From the NCBI RefSeq assembly GCF_056712565.1, contig NZ_CM160072.1: DNA of 64,000 nucleotides. One strand, given 5' to 3'. The position numbers were made by a program, and so were the translations under genes. Positions 4,156-6,738 of this stretch are shown piece after piece. The notes under the pieces are model-generated. The model worked only from the letters and a program-made list of their open reading frames with translations, had not been told where the DNA came from and ran no database searches. Numbering within the stretch: the stretch's first letter is position 1; each line of letters begins with the position of its first letter.

Positions 4156-4335
4156 GTCTGGCCTCGATAAAATAATGATGATGATGTTATCAATACTATC
4201 GAAAACAGCCCGAAGCAACGGATTCCTCTATGAAATTATTGCGTGTTGCAGAGGGGATGTGACGGCTGCAAACAAAACCAATCCTGTGAGCCTGCTACTA
4301 TTGATGGATTCATGCCAAAAGCACAGGAGAGCATT

Positions 4336-4416
4336 ATGGGGCAACAAACGCAGCGTAACCGATGTTGGGTTCTGTCCTTGCGTCCGCATGGCGCGCCGGT
4401 TCCTTACGTCTGGTTT
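4336..4416 (+). pseudogene. curA: 5' remnant of the curA NADPH-dependent reductase gene (about 27 codons, then a stop)
   Basis: ATG at 4336 translates MGQQTQRNRCWVLSLRPHGAPVP..., matching the recalled CurA N-terminus, then diverges and terminates. Confidence 0.5.
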
Positions 4417-4598
4417 CGGTAAATGTGCTCTTTGTCGCACCAGCGCAAGCATTTACAGTTCCGGAAGTGGGAAAACGTCAATTAAATGAAATCAATCGGA
4501 TCCGCTACGAACTGGAATTAATGGCAGTTGCTCTGGCTGTCGAAAACCTCACTATGCAAAAAAACGTTGCTATGTTGTGCCAGCAATACAGCCGATAA
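4400..4598 (+). pseudogene. mcbR: Probable 3' remnant of the GntR-family regulator gene mcbR, fused to the curA 5' remnant
   Basis: Track ORF 4362..4598 ends convergently with yncD where the mcbR 3' end is expected; only about 65 codons of C-terminal sequence remain. Confidence 0.4.
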
Positions 4599-4607
4599 AT
4601 AAAATAC

Positions 4608-4625
4608 GCCCGGCAAATACCGGGC
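4608..4625. terminator. GC-rich hairpin (gcccgg-caaata-ccgggc) between convergent gene ends
   Basis: Inverted repeat followed on the minus strand by a T-rich run just past the yncD stop. Confidence 0.5.
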
Positions 4626-4635
4626 TTAAAGATAA

Positions 4636-6738
4636 TTACTCAAATCGCCACGCAATATTTATGCCGACACCATAATTTCGTCCGGGCGCAGGTTCGTAAT
4701 ATCGCCCGTTTGACTCATTGACAATGACAGAACCAACGTATTCTTTATCGAATAAATTATCGACACGACCAAATAAATCCACGGTTAAATTGTGGTAATT
4801 GTATTTATACCCGGTGAATAAGCCGACGAGTGTATAAGAAGGCGCTTTGGCCGTATTTTCATCATCTGCCATAATATCGCCCATATAACGAGCTTCCGTG
4901 CCTGCATACCAACCATCTTCCGGTATATAACCTATCGACGCAAAGGCCATATTACGGGCGATCCCTGGCATCCGGTTACCGTTACAATCCTGTTCATTGC
5001 AAACATTGCTGCGATAGGTCGCATCAAGCCAGGTCCAGGACGCTTTTACGCGAAAATCTCCCGCGAAACGTTGATCCCATGCCAGTTCAGCCCCTTGACG
5101 ACGGGTCTTTCCGGCATTTTTGTAAGTCGTACGCCCACCGCTACTGCTATCGACAACAATTTCATCATCGGTGTCGGTCTGGAACAATGCGAGACTAAGC
5201 AGTCCATCACCAATACGCGTTTTACTGCCGATCTCAATTGTATCGTTGGTGGAGGGTTTTAACCCAAAGTTCATACCGCTTTGTCCATCAGCGCGATAAG
5301 ACAGTTCATTAATCGTCGGCGTTTCAAAACCGCGCCCTGCTGCCAGATAGACATTCCAGGCATCGGTCATTGCATATTTTAACGATCCGGCTGGTAGCCA
5401 TTTGTGATAACTGGCATCACCGCTGTCGTCGCCGTTACCCGGAGTAACGTAATGATCATTGGAATCAAACCACACGGAGCTGTAGCGCACGCCAGCATCC
5501 AGCGAAAGTTTGTCGGTCAGTTGCCACTGGGTTTGTAAATAGGGATCGACGTTCCACATCAAATTGCGTTCGTCGCGGCGCAACTCACCTTTTTGCCCGT
5601 ATTCCGGCACGCCGCGATTCAGGCGGAAGTTATTGTAACCCTTGCGGTTTTCACTCATGTTTTCGTAGTTCAGGCCGGTTGTGAACGTGACTGGAACGCC
5701 CAATTCACCACGGTGTGTCCAGCGGCTGTCTATCCCCTGGTAATGGCGTTGCAGGGTAATCACGCCGCCCGCATGTGACGGGTTAAGTTGCGGGGCCATG
5801 GGGATTGACTGGTACTGGGTCGTTTCTCGCTCTCCGGCATACATCATTACACTCATATCATCTTGCGCGCTCAGGCTACGTTCATAGCGCAACCCAGCCT
5901 GAGTTTGCTTGATGGTTTTTCGCGTGTCGTACTGTTCTGCACGAGGCGCTTGTTGTGGATTCGCCTTCCATTCTGCTTCGGTTAGCCCACCTGGGTCATC
6001 TGCTTTGATATCCACACTATTGAAAATCAGGCTTAATTTGCTGGCGTCATCAATGCGTACGCCCAGTTTGGCATTGGCTAAATTTTTCTGTGCGCCGCTA
6101 TGGTCACGATAGCCATGGGTCGTAAAACGTGTGGTTGAGACGGTGTAATCGACATCGCCGGGTTGTGTGCCGTCGCCCGTTGCGCCCGTAGCTTTCAGCC
6201 CATAGCGCCAGCTGCCAAAACTGCCGTAGTAACTACTGGCTTCAATGGTTGGTGGCTGTTGTCCGGTCTGGGTGGTGACATTCATTACACCGCCAGACGC
6301 GTTGCCATACAGAGCAGAGAAGGGGCCACGCAGCACTTCCACATTTTGCACACTGCTTAAATCGATGTTAGATGTTTGCCCTTGTCCGTCGGGCATGGTA
6401 GCGGGAATACCGTCCACATACAGGCGAATACCGCGAATTCCGTAAGTGGAGCGGGAGCCAAATCCGCGAATCGACAGCTGTAAATCTTGCGCATAGTTCT
6501 GCCGGTTTTGTACCTGTAAACCAGGCACTCCGGTCAGTGATTCAGACAAGTTAATGCGCGGTGTTGCCAGGCGCATCTCCTCGCCATCCACCACGCTCAC
6601 GGCTGCTGGGGTATCCAGTTCTGAAACCACCTGCGGTGCGGCACTGACAATCATGGTCTGTTCATCAGCGGCAAAAACAACGGGGGAAAGGACAAGCAGT
6701 GCGGGCAAAATGGTCTGTCGGACGGAAAAAATCTTCAT
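4636..6738 (-). CDS. yncD: TonB-dependent outer membrane receptor
   Basis: 700-aa ORF with signal peptide, plug and beta-barrel architecture and a C-terminal aromatic residue (…AWRFE). Confidence 0.9.
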   Translation of the reverse strand: MKIFSVRQTILPALLVLSPVVFAADEQTMIVSAAPQVVSELDTPAAVSVVDGEEMRLATPRINLSESLTGVPGLQVQNRQNYAQDLQLSIRGFGSRSTYGIRGIRLYVDGIPATMPDGQGQTSNIDLSSVQNVEVLRGPFSALYGNASGGVMNVTTQTGQQPPTIEASSYYGSFGSWRYGLKATGATGDGTQPGDVDYTVSTTRFTTHGYRDHSGAQKNLANAKLGVRIDDASKLSLIFNSVDIKADDPGGLTEAEWKANPQQAPRAEQYDTRKTIKQTQAGLRYERSLSAQDDMSVMMYAGERETTQYQSIPMAPQLNPSHAGGVITLQRHYQGIDSRWTHRGELGVPVTFTTGLNYENMSENRKGYNNFRLNRGVPEYGQKGELRRDERNLMWNVDPYLQTQWQLTDKLSLDAGVRYSSVWFDSNDHYVTPGNGDDSGDASYHKWLPAGSLKYAMTDAWNVYLAAGRGFETPTINELSYRADGQSGMNFGLKPSTNDTIEIGSKTRIGDGLLSLALFQTDTDDEIVVDSSSGGRTTYKNAGKTRRQGAELAWDQRFAGDFRVKASWTWLDATYRSNVCNEQDCNGNRMPGIARNMAFASIGYIPEDGWYAGTEARYMGDIMADDENTAKAPSYTLVGLFTGYKYNYHNLTVDLFGRVDNLFDKEYVGSVIVNESNGRYYEPAPGRNYGVGINIAWRFE

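Follow-up and report, generated by a model that had tools for sequence, protein, structure and literature searches.

A two-deletion scar in place of curA and mcbR, apparently the phylogroup B2 form of the mnaT-pqqU interval of Escherichia coli

Introduction

In Escherichia coli K-12 the genes curA (yncB) and mcbR (yncC) lie between mnaT and pqqU. CurA is an NADPH-dependent curcumin/dihydrocurcumin reductase of the medium-chain dehydrogenase/reductase family, and McbR/YncC is a GntR-family (FadR-like) transcriptional regulator. The Pfam limits of the K-12 proteins are residues 9-116 (ADH_N_2) and 161-297 (ADH_zinc_N) for CurA, and 13-74 (GntR) and 84-209 (FCD) for McbR. Lineage-fixed losses in pathogenic E. 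coli and Shigella are known as 'black holes' or antivirulence gene loss, an example being cadA in Shigella.

Fragments of the two genes are already marked as pseudogenes in B2 genomes by RefSeq/PGAP. The entry that falls at window 4392-4559 reads 'GntR family transcriptional regulator, missing N- and C-terminus' (EAS44_RS13305 in ATCC 11775), while the curA remnant is entered in other B2 genomes as a pseudogene 'hypothetical protein, missing C-terminus' that maps to window 4336-4404. Further pseudogene entries at the locus are C_RS29820 in CFT073 and E2348C_RS29100 and E2348C_RS08480 in E2348/69. Full-text literature searches and look-ups within individual papers brought up no account of a curA-mcbR deletion in B2, the matches only citing the original McbR papers.

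Results

Layout of the locus

The window is the whole stretch of 64,000 nucleotides analysed here, from contig NZ_CM160072.1 of assembly GCF_056712565.1. Over positions 1-50000 it differs from the record of the E. coli type strain ATCC 11775 at 8 positions only, and DSM 30083T (= ATCC 11775) belongs to phylogroup B2 (PMC4334874). A first-pass annotation, made from the letters of the window, had remarked on a short gap between mnaT and yncD, the older name of pqqU. The gap is real: the spacer measures 480 bp (4156-4635), compared with 2116 bp in K-12-like genomes. The features of the interval are the following.

3637..4155, minus strand: mnaT (yncA), intact GNAT acetyltransferase gene with its start codon at 4155, left neighbour of the scar (ORF list; PGAP annotation of ATCC 11775 mapped onto the window)
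4156..4335, plus strand: mnaT-curA intergenic region, intact, including the sequence upstream of curA (alignment to the K-12-like genome L002)
4336..4403, plus strand: curA 5' remnant, 22 codons including the ATG plus 2 nt of codon 23 (collinear with L002 4237-4304)
4336..4422, plus strand: residual curA-frame ORF, 28 aa, MGQQTQRNRCWVLSLRPHGAPVPYVWFR* (translation)
4362..4598, plus strand: mechanical ORF of 78 aa in the mcbR frame, its ATG within the curA remnant (ORF list)
4403..4404: junction D1, 1332 bp missing, blunt (blastn and MAFFT)
4404..4552, plus strand: internal piece of mcbR, 149 bp, with codons 56-104 and 2 further nt (93.3% identical to L002 5637-5785)
4552..4553: junction D2, 306 bp missing, in frame, blunt (blastn, MAFFT and frame computation)
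4553..4598, plus strand: mcbR 3' remnant, last 14 codons and native TAA stop, 46 bp (aligned to L002 6092-6137)
4608..4625: GC-rich, terminator-like hairpin GCCCGGCAAATACCGGGC, retained where the ends of mcbR and pqqU converge (terminator scan, minus strand)
4636..6738, minus strand: pqqU (yncD), intact TonB-dependent receptor gene ending at 4636, right neighbour of the scar (700-aa ORF; PGAP)

The intergenic region is approximately 98% identical to L002 (4 mismatches in 180 bp, no gaps), and the AGGAG ribosome-binding site directly 5' of the curA ATG is retained. The lesion had been placed from 4228 onward, but that position lies inside this intact region, where there is no breakpoint. A scan for promoters and terminators gave consensus-level matches only, at a frequency not above that in shuffled sequence, and of these we relied on the hairpin alone. 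Alignment shows the hairpin to be kept in the intact alleles and the outgroups as well, and RNA-family searches of 3900-4900 returned no Rfam match at E ≤ 1.

Breakpoints

Aligned by blastn to L002, window 4100-4700 falls into three collinear blocks: 4100-4403 matches L002 4001-4304 (96.1%, E = 4e-143), 4404-4552 matches 5637-5785 (93.3%, E = 1e-61) and 4553-4700 matches 6092-6237 (87.2%, E = 4e-48). The homology of all three is far above chance. The alignment thus bears out the reading from K-12 gene order, that curA and mcbR belong between mnaT and yncD and are deleted here; it maps the breakpoints and shows the remnants to be homologous to curA and mcbR. Because there are three blocks, we count two deletions and not one. 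Where a single junction had been proposed there are two, 4403|4404 and 4552|4553, on either side of a retained 149-bp block of mcbR.

D1 begins with the third base of curA codon 23, ends with mcbR codon 55 and includes the curA-mcbR spacer, whereas D2 runs from the third base of mcbR codon 105 to the second base of codon 207; together they remove 1638 bp in two blocks relative to K-12. Three of the four cuts are thus within a codon, namely curA 23 and mcbR 105 and 207, and the fourth lies between mcbR codons 55 and 56. Breakpoints were determined by blastn against L002 and five further intact alleles, with which an independent MAFFT alignment agrees, and that of D1 is identical against all 6 intact alleles by either method. 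Inspection for microhomology had been suggested; compared with K-12, four more intact E. coli alleles and three outgroups, there are zero common bases at D1 or D2. In K-12 the two sides of D1 have the 7-bp sequence CACCTGT in common, but away from the breakpoint, so that it cannot account for the junction. Neither junction is flanked by repeats able to cause assembly collapse.

As in a deletion scar, the spacer has collinear homology to fragments of intact genes, occupies the orthologous position and contains genes truncated in mid-codon.

Remnant reading frames

The observation that the curA ATG and about 22 codons survive is confirmed: from the ATG at 4336 the curA frame gives MGQQTQRNRCWVLSLRPHGAPVP to 4403, that is 22 codons and 2 nt, after which it diverges, crosses D1 out of the mcbR frame, adds YVWFR and stops at 4420-4422. 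Only 22 of the 345 residues of native CurA are left, and the 28-aa product has no Pfam match, neither ADH_N_2 nor ADH_zinc_N being recovered.

Downstream, the first-pass annotation had placed the 3' end of mcbR. The frame is indeed that of mcbR, running from 4404 to the native stop at 4596-4598 and convergent with pqqU, but the remnant is not merely the 3' end, since an internal piece precedes the last 14 codons. Of the 221 residues of McbR, 56-104 and the final 14 are left; its own start, promoter and helix-turn-helix are absent. Specifically, codons 56-104 encode the end of the wing of the winged helix-turn-helix, the linker and the start of the FCD domain (~20 residues). A GntR winged helix-turn-helix is therefore not present, the remnant starting only at codon 56, nor is an FCD domain, codons 105-207 having been removed by D2. 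The 78-aa ORF likewise has no Pfam match, and we found nothing that marks it as a gene.

Both ORFs are open in 8/8 sampled B2 alleles, the shorter one with amino-acid changes. Both are also without indels in these alleles, which is unremarkable over about 260 bp. Within B2 the mcbR frame of the 78-aa ORF has 4 nonsynonymous and 2 synonymous changes, and the within-B2 changes overall number 6 and 2 (8 alleles, a small sample).

Distribution among genomes

A 70-mer across each junction was searched in 5426 complete E. coli genomes. D1 and D2, counted separately, each occur in 1041/5426, all matches being full length, and the whole 601-bp query of the scar region is covered in 1042 genomes. The compact allele is thus present in ~19%, about one fifth, of complete genomes, whereas an intact curA-mcbR (at least 80% of its 1.9 kb covered) is found in 4356/5426, and ~29 genomes have neither form.

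Among the matches listed, the carriers include CFT073, S88, E2348/69, NRG 857C and ATCC 11775, and every well-known phylogroup B2 strain carries the compact form; K-12, BL21, B, DH10B and O157:H7 are intact. We take CFT073, S88, E2348/69 and NRG 857C to be of phylogroup B2. Judged by these named carriers among the matches listed, the allele would seem to be restricted to B2. The loss had been read as a phenotype-relevant lesion, and the same arrangement in reference genomes had been named as an observation that would refute the reading; B2 references, the type strain included, are equally compact, and the lesion is not particular to the present genome.

The carriers come from many hosts and countries; these hosts, their serotypes and the 90-100% range of identity in the junction region argue against near-clonal resequencing of one strain. 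Eight B2 alleles from independently sequenced complete genomes are gap-free and collinear over window 3637-5000. Among the matches listed we saw no allele with a single deletion, nor do the equal junction counts hint at one, and no convergent independent losses were seen, the carriers having the same two junctions. That both junctions are identical in all carriers indicates that the scar allele probably had a single origin.

Ancestral state and decay

The order mnaT-curA-mcbR(-pqqU) is intact in SCPM-O-B-8794 (a divergent 'E. coli'), E. whittamii and Escherichia sp. E1V33, and these three outgroup genomes align to the intact K-12 interval as one piece. Because three outgroup Escherichia have the intact four-gene order, the compact form is derived.

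B2-fixed derived substitutions number 8 in the 263 bp of the remnant, whereas the 884 bp of coding sequence on its flanks have none (Fisher p = 7e-6; 8 B2 alleles, 5 intact alleles partly picked for divergence, and 3 outgroups). The mnaT-curA intergenic region has one in 180 bp. The remnant shows relaxed constraint after inactivation, in this small sample, and the excess of fixed substitutions points to an old and decaying scar. We also considered the 87% identity of the 3' remnant to K-12 as a sign of decay and rejected it: the difference is mostly old allelic polymorphism, because the intact strain EC488 and one outgroup have the B2 form.

Discussion

With high confidence we regard the 480-bp spacer as an old and widespread curA-mcbR null allele, apparently the phylogroup B2 form of the locus. 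The ancestor would have had mnaT-curA-mcbR-pqqU, the order still found in K-12 and the outgroup Escherichia. Two blunt-ended deletions, D1 and D2, arising as two events or as one complex event, would then have left almost nothing of curA, taken out the spacer between the two genes (the expected site of the mcbR promoter) and deprived McbR of its DNA-binding N-terminal part and of most of the FCD ligand domain. What is left of curA, its upstream sequence with the ribosome-binding site and 22 codons, now reads out of frame into the 149-bp mcbR fragment; the 46-bp tail of mcbR comes next, and then the terminator that is shared. The scar would have drifted since, inherited vertically across the whole lineage, type strain included. 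As to the order and mechanism of the deletions, we infer illegitimate end-joining or a replication error, because there is no microhomology.

A recent deletion private to this strain, and relevant to its phenotype, would agree with the genes truly missing relative to K-12. It is nevertheless extremely improbable, given that the same junctions recur in roughly a thousand genomes from many hosts and countries, classic reference strains among them, and that within the carrier lineage the remnant has gathered substitutions, some fixed and others polymorphic. The opposite polarity, an ancestral compact form with curA-mcbR gained by insertion between mnaT and pqqU in other E. coli lineages, draws on the usual view of B2 as an early-branching phylogroup, which could in principle keep an ancestral state. 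The spacer, however, holds pieces of both curA and mcbR cut in mid-codon, and the three outgroups have the intact, collinear interval, so that this polarity is scarcely credible. Nothing specific suggests that the source genome was misassembled or collapsed here, and the probability of such an artefact is practically nil: the spacer is gap-free in eight independently sequenced genomes, is found by junction search in 1041, and has no repeats at its junctions.

More can be said for co-option of the scar, with the curA promoter and ribosome-binding site driving a new small protein of 28 or 78 aa or a regulatory transcript. The sequence upstream of curA is intact, Shine-Dalgarno motif included, the terminator hairpin is retained, both ORFs are free of frameshifts and stops in 8/8 B2 alleles, and the 78-aa ORF includes the McbR wing, linker and first FCD helix. 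We still consider co-option very unlikely, because there is no Pfam domain or Rfam match, the within-B2 changes (6 nonsynonymous, 2 synonymous) are as expected without selection, and the remnant evolves faster than its flanks. In addition, the 78-aa ORF lacks a recognisable ribosome-binding context and starts inside another frame, and PGAP labels both fragments pseudogenes.

The old null allele is the normal, already annotated state of the carrier lineage and not a strain lesion. Since neither remnant ORF matches Pfam, the scar allele is predicted to be unable to yield a CurA or McbR protein, and CFT073, S88, E2348/69 and the type strain should be natural curA/mcbR nulls. McbR targets such as mcbA would presumably no longer be McbR-repressed in carriers. 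Co-loss of this target is ruled out: 5420/5426 genomes, among them the B2 strain NRG 857C, have mcbA together with its upstream sequence. It is possible, but in our judgement unlikely, that the loss of McbR with mcbA kept is not neutral decay but an adaptation by which phylogroup B2 rewired its regulation of colanic acid, biofilm and stress. K-12 results on McbR (mcbA repression, colanic acid, biofilm) should be checked before they are transferred to carriers, and the same applies to CurA-dependent curcumin reduction. The two junctions could offer a simple way of recognising the carrier lineage by PCR. Otherwise this is an ordinary, vertically inherited pseudogene scar, flagged by RefSeq here and in roughly a thousand other genomes, and its practical value is small.

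The gene dosC, for a diguanylate cyclase, is destroyed by a second scar in the 64-kb window (40975-41022), again with two deletions flanking a retained island. The curA-mcbR and dosC scars might share a common, unusual deletion mechanism.

The PGAP pseudogene entries describe the same DNA as the scar, but they flag 'incomplete' fragments only, whereas the two deletions, their breakpoints and the 19% share come from the present analysis. Unlike the 'black holes' of Shigella type, the locus offers nothing that points to adaptive loss of curA-mcbR; it resembles them in that deletion of a regulator and a metabolic gene is fixed in a pathogen-rich lineage while the rest of the regulon is kept. There is likeness, too, to the K-12 curA (yncB)-mcbR (yncC) locus itself, with which the scar agrees in position, flanking genes and orientation, and with which it shares the curA upstream region and start, the mcbR stop and the terminator hairpin.

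Two deletions between mnaT and pqqU

In the window, which is from Escherichia coli, a spacer of 480 bp (4156-4635) separates two genes:

3637-4155, minus strand: mnaT (yncA)
4636-6738, minus strand: yncD, named pqqU in the present annotation

The same interval measures 2116 bp in the K-12-like genome L002 (NZ_CP043185.1), where it carries curA (1038 bp) and mcbR (666 bp). A blastn comparison of window 4100-4700 with L002 gives three collinear blocks, all on the same strand:

Window 4100-4403 = L002 4001-4304: block 1, 96.1% identity, E = 4e-143
Window 4404-4552 = L002 5637-5785: block 2, 93.3% identity, E = 1e-61
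Window 4553-4700 = L002 6092-6237: block 3, 87.2% identity, E = 4e-48

The blocks bear out the claim of the first-pass annotation that curA and mcbR are deleted relative to K-12. It had read a single junction; the three blocks imply two deletions, D1 of 1332 bp and D2 of 306 bp. The breakpoints are identical in blast comparisons with five more intact alleles of differing divergence, and an independent MAFFT alignment (16 sequences) places them alike. D1 starts at base 3 of curA codon 23, ends with mcbR codon 55 and takes out the curA-mcbR spacer on the way, 197 bp that must hold the mcbR promoter. D2 starts at base 3 of mcbR codon 105 and ends at base 2 of codon 207, and is therefore in frame.

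Specifically, D1 joins ...GGTTCC|GGAGAA... to ...GCATTA|TTACGT..., and D2 joins ...CCTCAC|CCCGCA... to ...GAAAT|TATGCA.... Both junctions are blunt. The microhomology considered earlier is absent from them: there are no shared bases at D1 or D2 in comparison with K-12, four other intact E. coli alleles or three outgroups. Blunt junctions suggest illegitimate joining rather than repeat-mediated slippage.

Loss of CurA and McbR

As first described, the curA ATG (4336) and 22 native codons are kept; beyond D1 the frame is out of register with mcbR and meets a stop codon (4420-4422), for a would-be product of 28 aa, MGQQTQRNRCWVLSLRPHGAPVPYVWFR. The second frame, which had been seen to run to a stop convergent with yncD, is that of mcbR, which stays open from 4404 up to its native stop codon (4596-4598). 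The assignment of this remnant to the mcbR 3' end holds for the last 14 codons, and an internal mcbR block is present as well. Apart from this block and the second junction, every detail first described at the level of the sequence is confirmed. An upstream ATG at 4362 combines with the mcbR frame into a mechanical 78-aa ORF. Also retained is the hairpin GCCCGGCAAATACCGGGC, at 4608-4625 where the ends of mcbR and pqqU converge.

K-12 McbR has two Pfam domains, a GntR winged helix (residues 13-74) and FCD (84-209), as does CurA, with ADH_N_2 (9-116) and ADH_zinc_N (161-297). Neither window ORF has a Pfam match at E ≤ 1, and no Rfam family matches window 3900-4900. Gone from the remnant are the McbR HTH and the greater part of its effector domain, together with the start and promoter region of mcbR. 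It is clear from the sequence itself that neither CurA nor McbR can be made. In K-12, McbR is reported to repress mcbA and to affect colanic acid and biofilm (Zhang et al. 2008). Since mcbA and its upstream region are present in 5420 of 5426 genomes, B2 strain NRG 857C among them, carriers of the scar would appear to keep the target and lack its repressor.

Distribution among E. coli genomes

Among 5426 complete E. coli genomes, 1042 cover the whole 601-bp compact query. Junction-spanning 70-mers match at full length every time, in 1041 genomes for D1 and 1041 for D2, equal as totals, not matched genome by genome; no genome with D1 or D2 alone is among the matches listed. The intact 1.9-kb curA-mcbR interval is covered to at least 80% in 4356 genomes, including K-12, DH10B, BL21, B and O157:H7 genomes. 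About 29 have neither form, for example through IS1 insertions. Of the 1042 records with the junctions, two carry a plasmid label, and the scar is present twice in one genome; these cases may represent mislabelled replicons or a duplication. The intact form has also been disrupted independently, by IS200C between mcbR and pqqU in Ecol_545 (L012 3010-3468) and by IS1 copies that split curA/mcbR in strain 162.2 (H101).

Carriers among the matches listed include CFT073, S88, E2348/69, NRG 857C, an O6:K2:H1 strain and ATCC 11775, all but the last of which we take to be canonical B2 strains. The type strain ATCC 11775/DSM 30083 matches window 4100-4700 at 100% (megablast, same genomes), and its record differs from window 1-50000, in reverse complement, by only 8 mismatches. 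DSM 30083T belongs to phylogroup B2 (PMC4334874). From the named carriers we infer that the compact form is a B2 allele. In CFT073 (L014 1233-2149) the right neighbour of the scar, pqqU, is annotated as frameshifted; it is intact in the window.

The scar had been presented as a lesion of note in this genome, a view that does not hold: about 19% of the complete E. coli genomes share it, and RefSeq already flags it. In ATCC 11775, PGAP marks window 4392-4559 as a pseudogene, named 'GntR family transcriptional regulator, incomplete; missing N-terminus and C-terminus', and in other B2 genomes it annotates the curA fragment as well ('hypothetical protein, missing C-terminus'). The scar is thus already publicly recorded, and the breakpoint map and frequency are modest additions. 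A full-text literature search found no paper describing the curA-mcbR deletion or its lineage distribution; the McbR literature found concerns K-12 and one avian pathogenic strain only.

Polarity and age of the scar

Fragments cut in mid-codon already imply deletion. Scanning a species-representative genome collection with a degenerate DNA pattern that encodes McbR peptide EINRIRYELELMA gave three Escherichia outgroups: 'E. coli' SCPM-O-B-8794 (divergent, about 89% identity), E. whittamii and Escherichia sp. E1V33. In each of the three, a single unbroken alignment covers the K-12 interval up to the contig end (for E1V33 this falls inside mcbR, with pqqU beyond view), so the intact gene order is ancestral. 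The scar is a vertically inherited pseudogene.

Eight B2 alleles, the window and seven others, are gap-free and collinear across 3637-5000. With the outgroups used to polarise differences, the 263-bp remnant shows 8 substitutions that are fixed in all eight and derived relative to intact alleles; the adjoining coding sequence of mnaT and pqqU shows 0 in 884 bp (Fisher p = 7e-6). Among the B2 alleles, 8 sites of the remnant vary (3.0 per 100 bp, vs about 1.2 in the flanking genes), with 6 changes nonsynonymous and 2 synonymous. All this is in keeping with an old scar that drifts free of constraint. That the scar was instead co-opted as a small-protein gene is very improbable; the curA-frame and mcbR-frame ORFs are open in 8/8 B2 alleles, weak evidence over about 260 bp.

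Intact strain EC488 and an outgroup have the B2 form too, which means that old allelic polymorphism accounts for most of the very low identity between the 3' remnant and K-12. The mcbR 3' end and the 3' part of pqqU (window 4553-5000) are unusually polymorphic among E. coli, at 90.0%-94.9% identity to differing intact strains over 448 bp, and the mcbR C-terminus has at least two old allele classes.

Other features in the window

Further along, yncG (glutathione S-transferase family, 9920-10520) is listed as a pseudogene, with a frameshift, in the annotation of ATCC 11775. An orphan type VI secretion cluster lies between yncG and yddH (11061-15610), near where K-12 has its rhsE region:

11061-11345: PAAR
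11364-13769: VgrG
13759-14520: peptidase M35
14573-15292: hypothetical protein
15467-15610: ISAs1 transposase fragment, after the cluster genes

Next to dosP (38387-40786, minus strand), the diguanylate cyclase gene dosC (40811-41021) is cut to a 165-bp 3' fragment and a 47-bp internal island. The region aligns with K-12-derived NEB10-beta (L020) in three blocks:

Window 40400-40975 = L020 1-576
Window 40975-41021 = L020 1107-1153
Window 41022-41700 = L020 1840-2505

This split indicates two deletions, of about 530 and 686 bp, flanking the retained island. The compact dosC form occurs in 5 of 24 evenly spaced genomes, so this scar may be lineage-wide as well. It resembles the curA-mcbR scar in its architecture, two deletions around a kept island.
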